Source of the DNA: Mustelus asterias
Lineage: Eukaryota
Length of the DNA stretch: 64,000 bases
Assembly: GCF_964213995.1 (NCBI RefSeq)
Contig: NC_135823.1
Coordinates: 1,054,001-1,118,000 of the forward strand
Direction of reading: 5' to 3'
How positions within the stretch are numbered: position 1 is the first letter of the stretch; each line of letters begins with the position of its first letter. Positions 19,646-62,845 of this stretch are shown piece after piece. Both the position numbers and the translations under genes were made by a program. The notes under the pieces were generated by a model that was given only the letters and a program-made list of their open reading frames with translations, made no database searches and had not been told where the DNA came from.

Positions 19646-19721
19646 GTTGAGGCGATTTGATTCTTAGAGTCGGCTTCAGGCATTTCAATAATCAGTGCTT
19701 ATGTCGCAATAATCTCTCTAG

Positions 19722-20039
19722 TTACAGATTCCGAGTCCTCTCTGTCTCAGATCTTCTTCACAATGACAGCTGCAATGGGCCAAACGGTGGAATTATCCTG
19801 TGATCATACTCATGAAGTGGATTTGGTGTCCAACTGTGCCTGGTACAAACAACGTATGGGTGAAGCCCCGATACTAAGAAGCCCTACAACCTGTATTGGG
19901 GCCAACTGTATGTTTATTTCTGAAAAAGCCAATCCGGGGAATTTGTTGATTCTGAAAATTCGCAATGTCCAGACGAATGACTCTGGTTCCTACAACTGTA
20001 TATAACTGTCCCGGAATGGAACCACACTCCTGGTTGGAG
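19722..20039 (+). pseudogene. Gene 2 germline-joined VJ exon (stop after the second Cys, shortened CDR3)
   Basis: ctag|..LSQIFFTMTAAMGQTVELSCDH..NCAWYKQRMGEAP..LILKIRNVQTNDSGSYNCI*LSRNGTTLLVG; phase-1 donor G|GTAAGA; TAA at 20003-20005. Confidence 0.9.
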
Positions 20040-20129
20040 GTAAGAGAGCAACTGAAATTCATTCAGATTATGCAAAGCATTATCTTTTGGAGTAAACTAA
20101 TCGTTAACTGTGTCCCAATCTCTCTCCAG

Positions 20130-20459
20130 ATACTTCCACCAACAAGACGGCTATCCAGGTATTTGCCCCGCTGGGTGAGCTGGATTTGAATGATAATGTG
20201 CCCTTAGTGTGTTTGGTTAATGGAGTTTATTTCAAACGGATTGCTATTTTCTGGAATATTGCTGGCCTGGTCACTGAGGGATCAAGTGATCCCGGGACAA
20301 TGGAGGAGGACGGAACCTACAACACCAGAAGTCATGTCATGGTACCGGGGCAAGTCTGGAGAAGTGACGGTGTTAGTACTTGCATTGTTCAACTGGGGAC
20401 TCCAGGCAAATATTGGACGAAGAGTGTGTCCTTCCTCAAAGCAGCAGCAAGTGGGACAG
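20130..20459 (+). pseudogene. Gene 2 C1-set exon (reading frame and both cysteines intact)
   Basis: ctccag|DTSTNKTAIQVFAPLGELDLNDNVPLVCLVNGVYFKRIAIFWNIAG...EEDGTYNTRSHVMVPGQVWRSDGVSTCIVQLGTPGKYWTKSVSF...GT; donor G|GTGGGT; V-C intron only 90 nt. Confidence 0.92.
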
Positions 20460-20529
20460 GTGGGTTGTTAATCTCCGAAATGATTATTTGAATTCAACTC
20501 ATAATCAGTTGGCGTAATGTTCCAAATAT

Positions 20530-34975: not shown

Positions 34976-35088
34976 CATTCCTGTTTACCAGACAGGTGAA
35001 ATTTTTTTTCTTCCCGTCAATCAGTAACAGTTAACCCAGTAATTATAACAGGAAAAGTTTTTACAGTGTTAGTAGCTCACTTAAGACA

Positions 35089-36509
35089 ATGGATTTTTCT
35101 CAGGCTGCTGACTGGAGCCGCCAAAAGAATATCAGTCTTTCTCGTGGCAGATTACTGAGCAATGTGCCAAGAGATACTAGTGAGGAGACGATTGCTAGGG
35201 TCTTAAACACAGTGAAAGTCTTTGGTCGCACCAAGATTTGTGGGCGCCGTCGGGAATCTACTGGCACACAGTTGTTCATACTAGTGGAGACGAGCATTGA
35301 TTTAACCCCTGACACTGTACCTCCATATGTAGGTAATGAAGGAGAAGCTGGGCCATGGGCTGTGCATACGCTAGAACATTTGGACACACAGGATGCTGTT
35401 CCTGAAGAGGATGCTTTACTTACAAAGCTGTTGTTACTACTACAACAGGAAGGCAAGTCAATGGAGGATTTTCAGGCCATAGTATCAGAACATCAAGCTC
35501 CCAAAGTGGATGTGAACATGGATTTAATGACTGCGAATGGAAAACTAGTGGACAAGTGCAACCAAGTGTCTACCGATGGGCCGAGCTACAGAAAGCTGAG
35601 ACTGTTTTCAGGACTGAAACCTGTACCCCAGGTGAGGAAGAATATGACGCCTGGATGGAGCAGGCTACCCAGATGATCAGCGAGTGGCAATGCACTGACG
35701 CCGCCAAGAGACAGCGTATAGTGGAAAGTTAAAAAGGGCCTGGTGCTGACATCGTTCGATTTTTGAAAGTTAGCACGCCCACTGCTACGGGCATCGATTA
35801 TGTATCTGCTCTGGACACAGCTTATGGCACCACAGAGAGTGGAGCCAACATCTTGGCCAAGTTCAGACACACATACCAGAATGAAGGAGAAAAACTCTCT
35901 GCTTTTCTTTTTCGCCTTGCCAAACTTCTCCATCGTGCTCTTCTTAAGGGAGGAATTACGGCTGCAGACATGAATCCAGCTCAGATGGAACAGCTAGTCA
36001 AGGGTGCACTCACTCGAGACATGGTTGCTCTGCGTGTAAGAATGAGCCACACCCTGGACAAATCCCCTTCCTTCTTCCAGCTGATGCGGGAAGTAAGAGA
36101 GGAAGAAAATTGGATTAGCGCCAGAGAAGGGGTGAAAGCAACTGCCACCGCAGCCACCGCCAGTGTACCGCAGTCTTCAGTTAGGTCTGAGTTCAACAGC
36201 CTACGAAATGAGGTAAGGGAACTGACTTCTCAGGTGGCCAGACTGTTCGGCGCCGTTCCAGTTACCCCGACATCTGAAAGTACGACAGCAAGGATTGGGT
36301 CTGTACAGCACGCACCAGAAGCTGCTGTTTGGGACGCGTCTCCCCGAGTTAAAATGTCCAAACCACTGCCGGCAGGAATCTTTTGCTACAGGTGTGGGCA
36401 AGATGGACATACAAGGAGAGTGTGCCAAGAACTCGAGGATCTGAGGAAAGTGAATCAGAAGCTGATCAAAGCAAGCAGACAGCAGGGAAACTTCTCAGGA
36501 GCCAGGTGA
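35089..36509 (+). pseudogene. gag: Gypsy gag (PNMA-like N-domain, capsid, CCHC knuckle), frameshifted
   Basis: ORFs 35089-35676 and 35763-36509. Confidence 0.85.
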
Positions 36510-39500
36510 AGGAACGGTGCTTGGTTCCGTGTGAAATACATTCCACCCACTGTCCACCCCCAGCGAAGCAAGGCTCAAAACAGTTACCTGCTGGATTAGT
36601 GGGGCCCATCTCTGGTGTACCTGTGCAAATAGAAGGAGGTTATGCAAGAGCTTTGCTTGACAGTGGCTCCCAAGTAACCATTGTGTATCGCAATTTCAAC
36701 GACACCTACCTGAAACACTCACCTCTCCAGCCACATGAAGACCTGGAAATATGGGGTTTAAGCTCTCACCAATACCCATATGATGGCTACCTGTCCATAC
36801 AACTCAAGTTCACTGCCGCTCTAACTGGAGTGCCGCAGACAGTTGACACTTTGGCCTTAGTATGTCCTGACCATGTGAAAGATGACAACATTGCCGTGTT
36901 GGTGGGGACAAATACCCGGCTGGTGAGAGAGTTGGTGGAGTCCTGTAAATAACAGGCAGGAGAACGCTTCTTGGGTACTTTGACCATACACCCCGTCCTC
37001 CGAGAAGCTTATGAGACACTCACCCAGTCTGAAACAACAGAAGGGGTAGACAAGCATGGTACTGTGTGGTTTACCCAGCACAAGCCAATCACCTTGCAAC
37101 CAGGAGAGCTGTTTAAAGTCACTGGCCTCCCAAAGTTTCCTGGTGATTTCACAGACCAGCTAGCACTGATAGATTAGCCGATTGACACTTTTTCCCCTGA
37201 AGAGTTGTGGGTGAGGCCTGAGGTTCATCCTGCATCAGTTGTTTACAGCAGACGCATTACTGTGACTGTCAAGAACCTCTCATCCAGAGAAATCTCCTTG
37301 AAACGTGGGACTCCAGTAGCCCATATTGTTCCAGTAGCCCCTGTTCCTCTGCCGAGGGCACAGTGTGCGGATAAAGGTGCAATCGAACTGACCCCTTCCT
37401 CTTTTGATTTTGGAGCCTCTCATATGCCAGAGGAGGCAAGGAGGCGTCTCTGTGAGAGAATGATGGAGAGGAAAGAGGTTTTTTCTCAGCACGAGTGGGA
37501 TGTAGGTTGTTCTAAAAGCACCAGACATGAATTAAGACTGAAGGATGCAAGGCCCTTCCGAGAGAGGTCACGTCCCTTGTCGCCTGCTGACTTTGAGGAT
37601 GTGCGCCAGCACCTACAGGAACTACAAAGCCATGGCATCATCTCTGAATCGTGTAGTCCCTACGCATCGCCAATAGTTGTCGTACGCAAGAAGTCAGGGA
37701 AGGTACGAATGTGCGTGGACTACCGAACCCTTAACATTCGAACAATACCGGACCAGTACACTGTCCCAAGGATAGAAGACGCTCTTCACTGCTTGTCTGG
37801 GAGTAAATGGTTCACAGTCCTCGATCTGAGGAGCAGGTACTATCAAATACCCATGAGTGAGGCTGACAAGGAGAAGACCGCTTTTATCTGCCCGTTGGGT
37901 TTTTATCAGTTCGAACGCATGCCTCAGGGAATTTCAGGAGCACCAACCACTTTTTGGAGTCATGGAACGTACTGTCGGCGACATGAACTTTCTAGAGGTG
38001 TTGGTGTACCTGGATGATCTCATTGTGTTTGGACGAACCCTCGAAGAACACGAGGAGCGGTTGCTCAAAGTGTTTGACCGGCTCCAAGAAGAAGGTCTGA
38101 AGCTGTCGCTTGACACGTGCCAGTTTGGCTGGACTTCTGTCACCTACGTTGGACATGTAGTGTCGCAGGATGGAATAGCGACAGACCCATCCAAGGTAGA
38201 GGCTGTTGTCCCCTGGCCAAGACCCCAAACGGTGACAGAGCTCAGATCCTTCCTTGGATTTTGTGGCTACTATCGCCGCTTTGTCAAGGACTTCTCCAGA
38301 CTCTGCCGTCCCCTCAACGGACTCCTTCAAGGATATCCTCCCCGTCCCCGCTCCAAGGGGAGTCAGACTGCAAACTCACCTGACAAGACTTACTTCAAGC
38401 CTTCTGAATCCTTTGGCTCTCAGTGGAGTGAGCAATGCGAACATGCTTTCCAAGGACTCAAGACCCGGCTCACCAAAGCACCTGTATTGGCGTTCGCAGA
38501 TCCACAGAAGCCTTACATTCTGCACGTGGATGCTAGCCTGGGTGGACTAGGTGGTATCTTATACCAAGAGCATGATGATGGTCTACGCCCAGTTGCATTC
38601 ATCAGCAGAAGTCTCTCGCCATCTGAGAAAAACTATCCAGCACACAAACTGGAGTTTTTAGCTCTCAAGTGGGGTATTGTGGATAAGCTACATGACTATC
38701 TTTATGGAGCTACTGTACAAGTCAGAACGGACGACAATCCCCTGACATACGTCACAAAGTCAGCTAAACTGGATGCCACTGGTGATCGCTGGCTCTCAGC
38801 ACTGTCCACCGACAACTTTAGACTTAAGTATAGACCAGGCCGGCATAACCTTGACGCAGACTCGTTGTCTCGACGTCCACATGACAGCATGACACCAGAT
38901 GACGAATGGCAAGAAATCCCAGTTCCAGCAGTGCGGGCTCTCTGTCAGACTGTGTCGAGTAGCACACGAGCAGGACACTCCTATCCATGTGTGATCGACC
39001 AAATAGGAGCTCATGTGTCGGCAGTTCCCAAGACTTTCTGTCATACCGTTGCAGGAGGAGCTGATCAGCTGCCCACTTTCAGTCCAGCAGAGCTTCAAGC
39101 TGCTCAGAAAAGTGACCCGTGTATAGGAGAAATATGGCTAGCTGTCAATCAGAAGGCACCGGCAAGTCAAATACAGACAAACCATCCTGATCTTACACTT
39201 CTGAAACGAGAGTGGGGGATGTGGTCAATCGACCAGGGACTGCTTTACAGGACAGTCAAACAGTCTGACCTACGCTTACGGCGACGGCTTGTGCTCCCCA
39301 AGCAGTTCCACCGTATGATTTTGAAGTCACTGCATGACAACAATGGACATCTGGGATTTAACAAGACCTATGCACTCGTCTGTGACAGATTCTTCTGGCC
39401 CCGCATGAAGCTAGACGTAGAGACATACTGCAAGACATGTGAACGCTGCATTAAGAGAAAGATTCTGCCACAGAGAGCAGCACCACATTCCCACATCCAA

Positions 39501-40950
39501 AGTTAAGGCCCTATGGATCTTGTATGCATTGACTTTCTCTCCATAGAACCTGATTCCCGCAATGTGTGCAATGTGTTGGTAGTCACTGATCACTTCACTC
39601 GGTATGCACAAGCATTCTCAACCAAGGATCAGAGAGCCATAACGGTTGCCAGAACTCTATGGGAGAAATACTTCATCCATGACGGCCTACCAACTCGTAT
39701 ACATTCAGATCAGGGTCGGGATTTTGAAAGCCAGTTCGTGAAAGAGATGCTGACCATGTTGGGTGTGAGGAAATCAAGAACTTCACCATACCACCCACAA
39801 GGTGACCCTCAACCAGAGAGGTTCAATAGAACCCTGTTGAACATGCTAGGAATTCTTGAGCCCAGTCAAAAGTCCAAATGGAGTCAGCACATTGCACATC
39901 TGGTCCACGCGTACAACTGTACGCCCAAATGAAGCTACCGGGTATTCACCCTACTTTTTAATGTTCGGGAGAGAAGCCAGACTTCCTGTGGACGTTTTCT
40001 TTGGCGTGTCAGCGGATGGGACCTCAACAACTTCTCACTTGCAGTATGTGTCTAAGATGAAGAAAGAGCTGCAAGCAGCCTATCAGTTGGCCAAAGCCAC
40101 TTCCGCTAGAATGAACCAAAGTAACAAAGAGAAGTATGACCAGAGAGTGCGCTACCATTGCTTGAAGCCTGGGGATAGAGTCCTCATTCGAAACCTTGGC
40201 CTGAAAGGGAAATAGAAGCTTGCTGATCGGTGGAGTGCAAATCCTTATGTGGTTGAGAGTCAAATGTCTGATCTTCCTGTTTATCGTCTAAAGCCTGCAG
40301 ATGGTTTGGGACCCATGAAGCTCATGCACCGCAATCATATTTTGCCCCTGGGACAAGAGGTCCAATTGAGCACTGACGTTGACTCAAAGCCTACTCCCTC
40401 TCCAAGATCCCTCAGGCACAGAAAAGCAAAAGAAAGAAATCAAACTCCTGAGGTTCACAAAGATGACTCCGCAGCTGATGTGCCCCTGGGAGATCAAAAC
40501 TCTTCAGACCCAGAGTCAGAGTATGGACATTACCCAGAGGACATGATCATTGACAATCCGGAGGGAATCCATGAACAACCGAAACAGGATGTCATGTCCA
40601 GAGAGTCCAATCCCCCCACAAATGCTACAGAAGTGACAGAAGTCGCAGCGAGCTCAGAATCTTCAGAAGGGCTACCTGTTGTGATAGAAGAGGTAGTAAC
40701 TGAGCAAAGGGATGTAGAATCAGACCGTTCTGTTGAGGGCACTTACACGACAGACACATCTAACATAGCCAATCCAGAACCAGAGATAAGGAGATCACAG
40801 AGAGAGAGAAAGCCAGCAGAACGATTCCATTATACAAAGCTGGGAGAGCCGTGTGCAAAGTCTGTAGTCGTAGGACATACAACTGTTCACTCTTTTCACC
40901 CACTCTTATACCAGTCATCACACTATAAGGTACATGGTGTAATTGCTTAA
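36485..40950 (+). pseudogene. pol: Gypsy pol (PR-RT-RNaseH-IN), multiple lesions
   Basis: ORFs starting at 36383, 36971, 37205, 37857, 39513, 39856 and 40249 carry successive domains. Confidence 0.9.
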
Positions 40951-41011
40951 CTGGGTCCTATGTCATGTACTTCAGCATGGGGGCATGCTGTCTTTTTGGT
41001 GGGGGGGAGAA

Positions 41012-41897
41012 TGTAAGGGACTGAGGAAAATATGTGGGGAAGACGTTTACCAGTGTTCTTTGTCCCTTGTGGCTTTCAGTGTCCCGTTTGCCGGGCGGGT
41101 GCTGTGAACAGGATGCTGTTGGTTGAGTGATGTGGGCTGGGCCAATGGGATTGCTCTGGGGGCGGGAAGAAAAAAAAGGCGCCAGGAAGTGATGGAGCCG
41201 CAGAGCTGAGGAGGGAGTGTGCAGAAGAGGGACAGCCAGGTTTTTTGAAGAGAAGCTTTTCGGAGGCAGTAAAAAGTCAGTTCGAAGTGAATCTTTCTCA
41301 GGTAGAACTGCTTGGTTTTTCATGACTGCCGAGGAGGACAGCCTTCAGCGCACGGGATCTGCGTTACTACACAGTTAGCTCGCGGCACCTCTGCCTCGTG
41401 TGCTTGCTCCATCACCTTACCTCTCGTAGACCCGTCTGGACTGTGTGTGTGTGTCGGGGTTAAGTGAGTACTATCAGACAGGAACAGTAACAAAATGTGG
41501 TTTTCTTCAGATGTGCACCAACGGATGGGCCGCAACCTTTAAAATTCAAAGTGCTTGGTGATATTCTGATCATTTCTCAGGATGAAACTGTTAATTGGAA
41601 AATCTTCAGTTGGGATTCTTTACTTGTTTATATCTGCTAATTATATTTGTTATTAATTTTTTTGTTATCCCGTTTATCTTGTTGTTCCAAACCTTTTCTC
41701 ATTCTAAGGTTTATCTCAATAACATTTTTGGGAGGCACCGCGCTATACATACTCAATTCCTTTCCATGCAAGCCTGTACTGGCATTTATGGGTCAACAGG
41801 AAATTTAGCGAGCTCACCATCAACTGCGAGGAATTCAGGATCCTGTAAATCGAACAGTTAAATAGTAGCCCTATATCGTGATCAGCAGGGGGTTACA
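41012..41897 (+). repeat. 3' LTR
   Basis: Preceded by PPT GGTGGGGGGGAGAA; ends GGGGTTACA. Confidence 0.95.
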
Positions 41898-46915: not shown

Positions 46916-47742
46916 CTGCAACACTAGATATAGAGGAAACACACAATTCTCTCTTTCTCTTTCTCTCTCTTTCCTCTCGAGTTAGAGTGTTGGACCCTCA
47001 TTAAAGACCAGACGAGTGCAAACAGACCGTGGATGAAAAGTGATCTGTCAATGTACTTCACACCATCATTATAGGGATTGGTGAAGCCATTGAGCCCCCC
47101 CACTCTATTCAACTAGACTAAGGTTGACAGGTATTTTAGCTCACATGCAACAATAATGAACATACATTAATATTCTCCCGAATATAAATGTATCCGTCTC
47201 AGTTTTGCGAAGTCCAACTGTTAACTGGCCTGAACAGTTTTTTTTTCCCCTCTGGGACAGAGTTCCAAAATTTGGCTCACAGTGGATACAGTGGCTCCAA
47301 AGTTAAGATTCTGCGTCCCTGGCGGAACATCCCCGGCGGTCCTCTGCATCCCACCCCTCCCCCTCGCCCCCACCCACGGCTGCATCTTCCAGTGCCACTG
47401 ACGTCCCCGGCGGCGGAGTGGTGCAAACGACGGGAAACCAGGTTGACACAAAGGTCAATAACGGGCCGCATCCCGTTGCTATGGAGGTAGGGGGGACGCG
47501 CAGGAGTGCGTTGCCTGCGGCGGGACCGGAAAATCACGCCAACAGGATGGGCTGGAGAATTCGGCCAATAATTTAAATTCGGTCTGAAGAAGTGTCCTAA
47601 GGGCTCAAAATATTCCTGTCTCCACAGATGCTGCCAGAGTTGCCGTTTTTTCTTTCTAGAATCATCTTTGTTCATTATGAATTTTGAATCTTGGGTGAAA
47701 AATTAGGGAAAAGTAAACACGCATAATGGAAAAAAAAGGTAC

Positions 47743-47800
47743 CTCTTCATTTTGTAGGTGTGGTCTGGAACCTATCAAGGCCTCATCACTACTTGCGTTG
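47743..47800 (-). other. Candidate 58-nt cytoplasmic exon of gene 3
   Basis: Polypyrimidine tract + aacag| acceptor and GAG|GTACCT donor, 130 nt after the TM exon. It reads ATQVVMRP* in phase 1, or NASSDEALIGSRPHLQNEE in another frame. Confidence 0.4.
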
Positions 47801-47903: not shown

Positions 47904-48049
47904 TTAGAGTATCTCCGAACAATCGCTACCCCTCTGCCGATTCCTGCGGCTGCATCTCCCAGCCACAAAGACCAATCCCAGACGGAGCAGTGCCACGGCC
48001 AACAAACCCCTGGACAGTGAGACAATGCATGACATGGTTACCGGAATAT
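47904..48049 (-). CDS. Gene 3 connecting-peptide/transmembrane exon
   Basis: tttttctttttcag|DIPVTMSCIVSLSRGLLAVALLRLGLVFVAGRCSRRNRQR: hydrophobic span then a basic stop-transfer run; phase-1 acceptor; donor G|GTAGCG at 47930, or read-through to TAA at 47904. Confidence 0.75.
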
Positions 48050-48212
48050 CTGAAAAAGAAAAATAACTTTCACCTCCAATTAGAATTGTGGAAAACATAA
48101 AAAAGTGAACAATTTGATCAAAACTGCCTGTCTATTTCCCCGAAAACAATAATTGGTTCTGTATATTCTGCCGTGATGTAATGGAGAAGAGAAGTTGCTG
48201 AACTATTTTTCA

Positions 48213-48604
48213 TGATGTGGAGCAGAAACTGATAGCCAAGTTCCGCACACACGAGGACGGCCTCAACCGGGATATTGGGTTCATGTCACACTATTGGTAA
48301 CTCCCACAGTTGTGTGGACCTGCAGAGTTTCACTGGCTGTCTTGTCTGGAGACAATACACATCTTTTTAGCCTGTCATGATGCTCTCTCCACTCCCATTG
48401 TTTTGTTTCTTAAAGACTTGATTAGTTGTAAGTATTCGCATTCCAACCATTATTCATGTAAATTGAGTCTGTGTCTTTATAAGCTCTGTTTGTGAACAGA
48501 ATTCCCACTCACCTGAAGAAGGGGCTGAGAGCTCCGAAAGCTTGAGTGGCTTTTGCTACCAAATAAACCTGTTGGACTTTAACCTGGTGCTGTTAAACTT
48601 CTTA
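48213..48604 (+). mobile_element. Penelope-like 3' fragment with hammerhead motif (48513-48550)
   Basis: Homologous to 7460-7840; TSD CTGAACTATTTTTCA at 48198-48212 / 48605-48619. Confidence 0.85.
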
Positions 48605-49659
48605 CTGAACTATTTTTCAACAGGACACAGGGGAGAGAGAACGAGAGAGAGTGAGTGAATGAGACTCAGAGAGCAAAAATCGAAAGATAATTGTTGAGTG
48701 AGAAAAATAAAGTGATAGGTAAGTTTGACAGGAGCAATCTCGAGATAATAGAGAGTGACAGAGCAGATAGATTATACAGAATTGTTTCACATGGGTATAC
48801 ATAAGGGAACAGATAGAGGGAGCAAGATAAGGACAAATCGATAAAAAGAGAGTCGAAGACGTAGGGATCCATTGAGACAGATAGGTTGGCTATTTAAATG
48901 GAGCACCGTTTAACTGGCAGGATCTGGCAAGGTAGAGAATATTAAAGATATCGATAGACAGAGAACGAGAGAGAACTCAATAGCTGGCGACAGAGAGATA
49001 AGAGAGAACGTGGTTGACACATAACTGCCCTATGGCAAGTAAGGATCGGCAATAAATGCTGGTTGGGGGTGGGTGGTGGGGTCGGGGGGGGGGGGAGAGG
49101 GGGAGGAGGGAGGGGGCGGGTGGATCGGGGAGAGACGGAGCGTTTAATACGTGGCGACACAGAGACAAAAGGGAAATGGAGAGGAAAGAGAAAAAGAGAG
49201 GGAATGATATGCAGAGAGTAGGCTAGCTGACTGAGATAGCACATTTTTATACAGAAACAAAATGAATCGATTAACAGAGGGAGAGAGAGGATGAATAAAG
49301 CTAAGTTAAGCAGCTGGATAGATACATCAGATAGCAGGCGCTGCTTTGCTTAACTGTGATCGTTCGAAGTCGAGAGACAAAAGGTCGAATGATTGATTAA
49401 AACTCATAATGTTTTATCGAATTAATCATTACATGTAGGCATGATGTGACAAAGTTATATGATGGAAATGCAATCACATATTTCATTTCAACCCACGGCA
49501 ACATGGGCCCCTGACTCCCAACCGTATTCAAGCTGGCGCCGGAGCATGGCTGTTTCCTGAGAGTTGTCCCCAGCATACCCACTAATTCTGTCATTCACTT
49601 CCGTACTATGCTTTTAAAACTCAAATCTAACTCGCTTATACTTTCTAGTAATCTTCCAA

Positions 49660-50205
49660 TTATGACTGTAGTATTACATGCTGCACCCATTCCTTTCCTT
49701 CTCCCATATGTACGACATAAATGGTATGTTTTGCCTGTTTAGCGTGCAAGAAACAATCCTTTTCATTCTATCCCAATACATGTGAGAGTAATGAATCAAA
49801 TCTAAGTACTCTGTGAACGGTATGTTTTTTTTCTGTTTAGCGCAAGAAAATATACTTCTCAATGTATCCCAATAAATATGACAATAATAACATCAAATTA
49901 AATCAAGTCTATCTCCCTATGATGGTATGCTTGTTCTGTATCACGCGCATGAAACAATGCTTTTCACAGTATCGGAAAACATATGACAATAATAGATCAA
50001 ATCTATGGACTCGATGAGCGTTATGTTTTGAATGTATAGCGCAAGAAAATGTGTTTTTCACTGCATCTCAGTACATGTGACAACACTAAATCAAATGAAA
50101 TCAAATCCATGTACTCTATCAATGGTATGTTTTGTCTTTGCAGCGTGCATGGATCAAAACTTTTCACTGTATCCCATTACATGTGAAAATAATAAATCAA
50201 ACCAT
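49660..50205 (+). repeat. Tandem array (~5 x ~105 bp) of Rex/Babar-like LINE 3' tails
   Basis: Repeated ATGTTTTG..TAGCGCGCAAGAAACAAT.CTTTTCA.TGTATCCCAATACATGTGACAATAAT.AATCAAATC. Confidence 0.75.
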
Positions 50206-50588
50206 ATCAACACGGCGGAGCCAGACACATGGAAACAGGAAATAGGAGTAGGGAGAACACAGTCCACTTTTCGAGGCTGCTCCGGCATTTTATGACATGA
50301 TGGCTAATTTTCAACATAAACGCTCCCTTCCGGCGATTTCCCTATATCTCGACATCCATCTGTGCCAGAAATAACTGTCTCAGTGGCTGAACATGGACAA
50401 CTCTCTGGGAGAGGGAAGATTACATTTTCAGCAAACTGAACTCTGACCGAACGAGAGATCTGTGACAGGTCAAAGTTGAATTGGATTTACATGGGAGAAC
50501 AGACATGTCATAAAATTAGACAGCTCTGCGTAAAGTCTGACATTGGCATTAAATAGTTGGATTTCAAGGTGTCATTGTGAATAGCTAC

Positions 50589-50877
50589 CTCTCTGAGATG
50601 AGACACTTTCACTGAAAATACTTTCACTGGAAATGACCTGAACGGCCCAAATGCAGCGAGTGCCGCTGCTCCAAGTTTCCGCCGGGAGGCTCATGTAACT
50701 CCTGACGGTGTCGGTGCCGCCCGGTTCCATTGCTCCCGAATCGGTCAGTCCCACGGTATCCTGCCCCGAAACATTCCAGCGGATGGAAATGGAATCGGGA
50801 GACAATCCTCTGACCAAAGACAACAACGGGACCCTGATGCAGCGGTGGAGTGAGGACGAATATGGTGAGGGAATCCG
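50589..50877 (-). pseudogene. Gene 3 C1-set exon, decayed (17-nt deletion; both canonical Cys lost)
   Basis: Colinear with the gene 1 C exon: ADSLTIFVLTPP/fs/RVPLLSLVRGLSPDSISIRWNVSG..ETWSSGTRCIWAVQ..SQR; acceptor tag|CG and donor G|GTAGCT; 289 nt versus 306 expected. Confidence 0.9.
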
Positions 50878-50975
50878 CTAAATTCGACAAAAAGAGAACC
50901 CATGAACAGGCAGAACAGGACGCTTTTTAATTGCTATTGAAATGTCCACTTCAACAGAAGAATTATAAAATTTAC

Positions 50976-51314
50976 CTGCAATTACTAACTTAGATCCATT
51001 TCCGAATATCAGTGACCTCTTTTTGAGATTGCGGATTGCACAGTCATACATCCCAGAATCGTTTCTCCGGGCATGCGTAATCAGCAGTGAATAAATACGC
51101 ACGTTTTCAGATTTCTTACTTGCAAAGCTCTCACCTTCCTGGAGGTATTTGCCATGTCTGCAAACCAATTTTATTTTGTTTCGCTCCGATTGCATGTACC
51201 AATAGACGACAGCAGCTCCTGAGCCCTCGATGTGGCAGTTCAGTTTAACACGGCTCCCCTCCGGAAGTGTCTGAACAGGTGGAGACTTGGACAAGATAGA
51301 ATGAGACACTATGT
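50976..51314 (-). CDS. Gene 3 germline-joined VJ exon, intact
   Basis: tctcag|DIVSHSILSKSPPVQTLPEGSRVKLNCHIEGSGAAVVYWYMQ..YSLLITHARRNDSGMYDCAIRNLKKRSLIFGNGSKLVIA; phase-1 donor G|GTAAAT; V-C intron 98 nt. Confidence 0.93.
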
Positions 51315-52316
51315 CTGAGAAGGAGAGACAGAAAGAACAAGAGTCACCACAAATTGTCCTGCACGACCTGAAAATAGCCCCCGTCAGACAAATGCCAATA
51401 TAGAGGCAAAACAAATCGAGAAACAACGACAAACAAACGAGGTGTCCAGCTCACGAACTCATAAAATCGCGCTGATTATTGTGTTGGTTGTGTTGCTTTC
51501 ATCAGTGCCCAATCTGAGCCGATTCACCAGGAAATCTAGTGTAAGCATTGGAGTGGACACCTGGGAACTCTGACGGGTAAATAAATTAATGTACTTCTTC
51601 AGAATGTAATGTTATTTTCTCGCATCCAAAGTTTGTTTAAACTTTTCTCTGCTGACATTGGGCGCTTGACTTTTCTTCAAGTCTTTATAATTTCAGTTGA
51701 AAGACGACAGTACCCATCCCGCTCCCCCAGTCGCCAAAGGTGTAAATGATGCTAACTTACATATTTTATGGCAATGATTTGACAATTCGCTTTAATTTCC
51801 ATTCAATTCACTGATAGATACATTACATTTTCCACTGCGTTGCGGAGTTAATGGCAGCGTACTTTTGACACGAATAAATAAGCGTTAAAACACTGGTTGT
51901 TAAGTCAAGCTTGCATGCTGTGTTTCATCTCACAGCTGTGCACAGCTGGGAAGGAGACCATTCGGGCCTTCGTGTCAGTATTGGAACTTTGAAAGACTTA
52001 TCCAACTGGCCACTCACCCTCCTTTTCCCCTCTAATATCACAGCTAATGCTGGCCCCTTGACGCATTTCACCAACTCCCCCCTATTGAAAGTTACTGTTG
52101 AACCTGCTTCCACCGCCCTTTCAGGCAGCACCTTCCAGATCACAACAACTCGCTGCATTAAAAAAACACGTTCGCTATCTCACTCCTGAGAATTACCGAT
52201 CATCTTCCACCTGTTTTTCTGTGGTTACCGACCAAACTGGTATTGGAAACTGTTCATTGCTACTTAACCAATGTCAATTCTTCTTCACTCTATCTGAATG
52301 TCTGTGGATCTCTCAC

Positions 52317-52359
52317 CTTGGAAGAGATGGAACGAAGCACAGACACCGAGCAAACTCAT
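52317..52359 (-). CDS. Gene 3 leader exon
   Basis: MSLLGVCASFHLFQ + G|GTGAGA, 43 nt, phase 1; closely similar to the gene 4 leader. Confidence 0.88.
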
Positions 52360-62802: not shown

Positions 62803-62845
62803 ATGAGTTTCCTCGGTATCTGTGCAGTGTTCCATCTCTTTCAGG
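62803..62845 (+). CDS. Gene 4 leader exon (rest of the gene is expected beyond the window end)
   Basis: MSFLGICAVFHLFQ + G|GTGAGA, 43 nt; 11/14 aa identical to the gene 3 leader, with homologous promoter and intron start. Confidence 0.85.

Follow-up and report, generated by a model that had tools for sequence, protein, structure and literature searches.

Exon structure of gene 3 and its intact sister

The window analysed here is a 64,000-nucleotide (nt) stretch of the 3.68-Gb Mustelus asterias genome (contig NC_135823.1, here C23; C23:1054001-1118000). On its minus strand it carries gene 3, a member of a shark family with leader (L), VJ, C1, transmembrane (TM) and cytoplasmic tail exons, which an earlier note on this DNA had read as a possible single-V receptor that survives by skipping a dead C1 exon. 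Paralogs are named by their position in kb on the same contig. The intact sister of gene 3 is g1244 (L002/L031), with which it is collinear over ~11 kb at 83-87% identity, the introns being kept; its V is 88% identical to that of gene 3. The six exons of g1244 encode a 303-amino-acid (aa) L-VJ-C1-TM-tail protein with an uncharged TM segment and an immunoreceptor tyrosine-based inhibitory motif (ITIM), SVYARL, which fits the ITIM consensus S/I/V/L-x-Y-x-x-L/V. A basking-shark homolog whose tail ends in a YARL motif led to the location of two tail exons in gene 3, so that all six exons of the L-V-C1-TM-tail 1-tail 2 plan are retained:

52317..52359, minus strand: leader exon, 43 nt, open, with a phase-1 donor; protein identical to the g1244 leader
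50976..51314, minus strand: unsplit VJ exon, 339 nt, open, with both Cys, the Trp, FGNG and AG/GT splice sites; Pfam V-set match at 2e-13
50878..50975, minus strand: V-C1 intron, 98 nt; retention reads to a stop that is the acceptor's own TAG
50589..50877, minus strand: dead C1 exon, 289 nt against 306, with both splice sites intact
47930..48049, minus strand: TM exon, 120 nt, open, with the conserved GT donor kept at 47930
47743..47800, minus strand: cytoplasmic exon 1, 58 nt against 59 in paralogs, frameshifted
46982..47026, minus strand: cytoplasmic exon 2 (ITIM exon), with acceptor AG>GG and ITIM Tyr>Cys

Rechecking of boundaries and frames confirmed the open leader, VJ and TM exons, with their canonical residues and splice sites. 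The C-terminus printed in the earlier note, a read-through to 47904, ignores the TM donor at 47930. The V domain has an ordinary V-set fold by AlphaFold (mean predicted local distance difference test score, pLDDT, of 75) and Foldseek, such models being blind to the effects of point mutations. Two substitutions in the VJ exon, Q9K (51288-51286) and Y90D (51045-51043), fall at sites that are invariant in nine of nine in-genome paralogs and also in all 10 of the further family V domains aligned, and there is an extra Cys51.

Lesions in the C1, TM and tail exons

Disabling lesions are found in three exons of gene 3, as a C1 frameshift, a tail-1 frameshift and the loss of the tail-2 acceptor, and residues invariant in the family are changed in V, C1, TM and tail exon 2. 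In C1, a 17-nt deletion (junction 50834/50833 in the alignment to g1244) brings a stop at 50626-50624 into the C1-included frame, and comparison to g1244 gives Cys>Ser in the B strand (50820-50818) and Cys>Trp in the F strand (50649-50647). These C1 lesions are real, as had been reported. All 79 sampled words of 50560-51340 are present in X1, which is possibly the assembly's own source, and the deletion would thus be backed only indirectly by this sampling. A cryptic C1 acceptor AG at 50808 was considered and rejected; it restores the 3' frame, is without an adjacent pyrimidine tract, and still leaves both Cys missing.

The statement that C1 alone is damaged does not hold, because both tail exons, missed at that time, are broken. 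In tail exon 1, the loss of 1 nt at the acceptor leads to a TGA at 47777-47775 after 8 residues. In tail exon 2, the acceptor CAG is changed to CGG at 47028-47027, where AG is present in 15 of 15 paralogs, and the ITIM Tyr is replaced by Cys at 47020-47018, a Tyr in 14 of the 15 and a stop in the other (two further rows, a spurious match and one overlapping the window itself, were dropped from this comparison). The same exon carries A4T and D11G. An assembly error in the TM exon or tail exon 1 was rejected, since an X1 contig spanning 47391-48064 matches at the lesion sites, its 3 substitutions and 1 gap all lying away from them; this check covers the TM exon and tail exon 1, the tail-2 acceptor being outside it.

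The TM exon of gene 3 has gained two arginines, G13R (48011-48009) and L22R (47984-47982). L22R occurs in none of the 15 paralogs, and a mid-TM Arg in none of eight aligned full-length family proteins. G13R recurs in two of the 15 (g1451 and g591, via different codons), g81 has G14R, and gene 1 of the window also has R13. Neither arginine is present at any of the eight loci with open V-to-tail frames. With L22R private to gene 3 and G13R absent from the open loci, the TM Arg appears not to have been inherited as an NKp30-like feature. The earlier proposal of an NKp30-like design relied on this Arg, whereas the family is ITIM-type with an uncharged TM.

Splicing and predicted products

Every intact paralog has phase 1 on both sides of its V, C and TM exons. 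Splicing of V to TM in gene 3 is therefore in frame, as claimed, and equally so throughout the intact family, so that the possibility of in-frame skipping carries no signal of its own. The C1 donor GAG/gtagct of gene 3 is the same in six of eight paralogs compared, and the C1 acceptor is pyrimidine-rich and ends in TTTAG; with both splice sites intact, C1 would be included by default. Nonsense-mediated decay (NMD) is triggered by a stop >50-55 nt upstream of a junction (the 50-55-nt rule). From the C1 stop it is 35 nt to the C1 donor and ~155 nt to the TM donor, a distance that would make the C1-included mRNA an NMD target. In a C1-skipped transcript the tail frameshift stop is 32 nt before the tail-1 donor; such a transcript would escape NMD, and a V-TM product could still be made. 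A search of proteins of 61-196 aa gave no annotated short product (4 candidates). A search of longer proteins gave only two basking-shark proteins and also missed the sister g1244, so that this blank is uninformative.

Retention of the 98-nt intron was likewise proposed to give a secreted V-only protein. The frame does remain open to 50880-50878, for 159 aa, and to that extent the claim stood; the secreted form itself we judge very improbable. Its stop is merely the TAG of the acceptor, and paralogs also read into this intron, g943 stopping at or just before the acceptor. From V to the tail the sequence is free of AATAAA; ATTAAA occurs just twice, at 50931, which precedes the stop, and at 49148. 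Splicing of the downstream exons would in turn trigger NMD.

Substitution pattern along the gene-3 branch

Over 3098 intron sites, the gene-3 branch shows a divergence of 5.4%. The proportion of nonsynonymous differences (pN) is 0.028-0.040 in V, 0.037-0.039 in C, 0.062-0.074 in TM and 0.083-0.090 in the tail, against 0.054 in introns. The TM synonymous value (pS) is 0.14, and the nonsynonymous counts are small (TM 5-6, tail 6). At paralog-invariant sites gene 3 has 11 changes and g1244 only 1 (binomial p=0.003); by exon, the 11 are distributed as V 2, C 5, TM 1, tail-1 0 and tail-2 3. The comparison of V (2/112) with C1 (5/95) gives a Fisher p of 0.25, or 0.15 with the Cys>Trp change added, at weak power. 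The V of gene 3 is not measurably more constrained than its C1. With a looser reference set, gene 3 and g1244 differ little (V 11 vs 9, C 14 vs 10), and many changes are common to both, which suggests that their joint lineage had already diverged and that g1244 may be atypical.

The earlier note had named neutral evolution of V relative to C as a check on its proposal. The pN values of the two exons are about equal, and the ratio of nonsynonymous to synonymous rates (dN/dS) of V, derived from noisy pairwise three-point distances, depends on the outgroup; the test is therefore weak, and V may be under constraint.

Gene 3 as a probable young pseudogene

We consider it probable that gene 3 is a young unprocessed pseudogene of the six-exon shark L-VJ-C1-TM-ITIM family, with no working protein. 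With C1 included, as expected of the main transcript, translation would end at 50624 and the mRNA would be lost to NMD. Drift following death of the gene at some point along a branch of ~5% divergence likely accounts for the TM Arg and for the V and TM exons that are still open. The earlier note had offered a young pseudogene as its alternative, and this has become the better-supported choice, given the broken tail exons, the intact C1 splice sites and a V that is not measurably more constrained.

Several observations weigh against a pseudogene. The three disabling lesions all spare L, V and TM, with a chance of ~0.09 by target size. In simulation, L, V and TM all stay open with a chance of only 0.012 if the whole branch was neutral; the value is 0.037 when the neutral part is three quarters of the branch, 0.11 when it is half and 0.32 when it is a quarter. 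The simulation uses intron indel rates and probably overstates those of exons. By chance, about one such spared case is expected among the 13 damaged loci of the family. The leader protein is unchanged from that of g1244, and the TM segment still rates as a membrane helix: over 19 residues its best Kyte-Doolittle mean is 1.94, where paralogs have 2.3-2.7. For V, the gene-3 branch gives a dN/dS of 1.42 with one outgroup and 0.35 with another. A zebra-shark model of the same family, P0087 (209 aa), is without C1; it has V, a short stalk, an uncharged TM and a Tyr tail, and is known here as a gene model only. Finally, TM Arg gain together with ITIM loss is the exact inhibitory-to-activating signature of KIR and Ly49 described in PMC2213150.

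A rival reading is a live single-V activating receptor, in which C1 is skipped, V is spliced to TM, and a 175-aa protein without ITIM recruits an ITAM (immunoreceptor tyrosine-based activation motif) adaptor through its TM Arg. We regard this as unlikely. The in-frame V-to-TM splice, the stop 32 nt before the next donor that escapes NMD, the two TM Arg with the ITIM lost, the sparing of L, V and TM, and the C1-less P0087 are all consistent with it. The switch mechanism is also known: activating KIR and Ly49 arose from inhibitory homologues by gain of a TM basic residue and loss of the ITIM, within tandem birth-and-death families like that of gene 3 (PMC2213150). However, the KIR switch described there consists of signalling changes only, whereas gene 3 is altered throughout; the ligand-binding domains of KIR and Ly49 are intact, while the C1 of gene 3 is dead and its V damaged by Q9K and Y90D. 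The C1 splice sites are intact, the pN values of V and C are equal, and g839, in which V is likewise open and C1 dead, has a retained tail and, in TM, Leu>Glu instead. Of the single-V proposal, what stood is the possibility of an in-frame, NMD-escaping product; its premise of damage limited to C1 did not, and that of a TM Arg marking an NKp30-like design is weakened by the Arg being private. It is similarly doubtful that gene 3 is in mid-conversion from an inhibitory V-C1-ITIM receptor to an NKp30-shaped activating single-V receptor paired with the ITIM-bearing g1244. Such a conversion would combine three changes, the skipping of C1, the gain of an Arg in TM and a truncated tail, to yield the 175-aa protein, and if the skipped form were real, one gene would show the passage from a VJ-C1 antigen-receptor-like inhibitory receptor to an activating receptor of NKp30 shape.

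In a further, quite unlikely scenario, gene 3 first became an activating V-C1 receptor by TM Arg gain and tail loss and was later killed by the C1 break, leaving a pseudogene of the activating form. The pN of TM and tail exceeds that of V and C1, as if these exons had been released earlier; g1451 combines a TM Arg and a lost tail with an intact V-C1; and in PMC2213150, activating-type Ly49 pseudogenes are described and genes having made the switch often end as pseudogenes. The counts behind the pN contrast are small, however, and the TM pS is high as well. G13R, which turns up again in damaged genes, likely has a CpG context, and the order of events is unreadable from one genome. As a pseudogene, gene 3 would be of minor importance, being one of 13 damaged copies.

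Comparison to known receptors

Gene 3 is, as judged from sequence, not NKp30 by descent. NKp30 (NCR3) has a single V-set domain and a TM Arg, the architecture of the C1-skipped product, and is located within the MHC (major histocompatibility complex), in its class III region (PMC6514059). Further marks of NKp30 are its ligand B7-H6 and the partners CD3zeta/FcRgamma. NKp30 is without a C exon, whereas gene 3 has a C1 exon with intact splice sites between V and TM. Also unlike NKp30, gene 3 has its ancestry in V-C1-TM-ITIM genes whose TM is uncharged, the Arg being private to it. None of 140 MHC class I matches lies on C23, all being on C8; of 156 candidates 150 were scored, and the search was for class I, not for class III genes. 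The top sequence and fold matches of the gene 3 V are T-cell receptor and antibody V domains, in which the databases are rich; NKp30 is not among the best 60 of 1073 sequence matches or the top 50 fold ranks listed.

The VJ-C1 order of the gene 3 family is common to PRARP, tetrapod VJ-C1, UrIg and UrIg2. PRARP has tails with ITIM or immunoreceptor tyrosine-based switch motifs, and its C1 is degenerate in birds. UrIg is secreted and MHC-linked and has three C1 domains, whereas the gene 3 family has one C1, a TM segment, an ITIM-like tail and ~25 copies, on a contig without an MHC class I match and with a second, interleaved V-C1 family. In the accessible parts of PMC10751288 and PMC12227049, a C1 exon downstream of an unsplit VJ exon is described for non-rearranging VJ-C1 genes, and the former lists PRARP among the MHC-located VJ genes; the gene 3 family is not described in those parts. 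No literature description of it was found elsewhere, specialist immunology journals and supplements being incompletely covered, so that one may exist.

The gene 3 family and neighbouring genes

The cluster is the more useful result: two interleaved non-rearranging VJ-C1 families with ITIM-like tails, outside the MHC contig and with relatives in sharks and rays. A search with the V exon of gene 3 finds ~20 relatives within 3.3 Mb of the start of C23, and searches with TM and C1 add more. Among 25 family loci examined, gene 3 included, eight are open from V to tail, 13 are damaged and four are unresolved; leaders were not located in several paralogs, for which the fetched stretches may fall short. 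The damaged loci comprise two with V open and C dead, four with V dead and C open, four with both dead, one with both deleted, and two with tail damage only.

Besides gene 3, the V-open, C-dead class contains g839 (L041), with two stops in C1, an open TM with Leu>Glu and an intact tail. The close sister g1172 (L067/L069) has lost C1 entirely and V for the most part, an insertion standing in their place, and its leader, TM and ITIM tail remain open. In g943 (L032), the ectodomain and TM are open, the tail-1 donor is dead and the ITIM is degenerate. g702 (L036) has an F-strand Cys>Tyr in an otherwise open frame.

The paralog g1451 (L034, C23:1450100-1460099) has open L, V, C1 and TM exons with the TM Arg G13R, and a tail that is dead through a tail-1 acceptor AG>AT and a stop. 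It differs from the ITIM-intact g1401 at 8/688 nt in L+V+C1 and at 10/120 in TM (p=6e-5), with divergence of 4.5-8% in most flanking segments. g1451 may be a better candidate than gene 3 for an activating partner with a homogenised ectodomain, or else an early pseudogene.

The Mustelus asterias RefSeq model P0013 corresponds to g1401 over V, C1, TM and tail. Together with P0001, P0041, P0063, P0066, P0068, P0087 and P0106, it belongs to a set of elasmobranch RefSeq/UniRef models (sharks, sawfish, skate) that have the L-VJ-C1-TM-tail plan and a Y-x-x-L end, as in the gene 3 family, their annotation going no further than uncharacterized or Ig light chain-like. In the aligned full-length models the TM core is uncharged and the tail Tyr is kept, both being changed in gene 3.

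The second V-C1-TM family has ~20 copies interleaved with the gene 3 family over C23:0.07-3.3 Mb. Its homologs in catshark, horn shark and basking shark have an uncharged TM, several with YASL tails, and some isoforms are TM-less. The two interleaved families could form heterodimers. In the window it is represented by gene 2 (19721-20480, plus strand), with a stop in V. Gene 1 (9413-4902, minus strand) is a pseudogene with a V stop, a C1 frameshift and a TM stop, and shares with gene 3 the Y>D that precedes the second V Cys. The leader of g1118 lies at 62803-62845 (plus strand), with open exons beyond the window and a TLYACL tail. At ~35000-41600 there is what we take, from its motifs, to be a Gypsy-like long terminal repeat retroelement with gag, reverse transcriptase, RNase H and integrase frames, and many fragments elsewhere in the window are, on the same basis, presumably CR1-like long interspersed nuclear elements.

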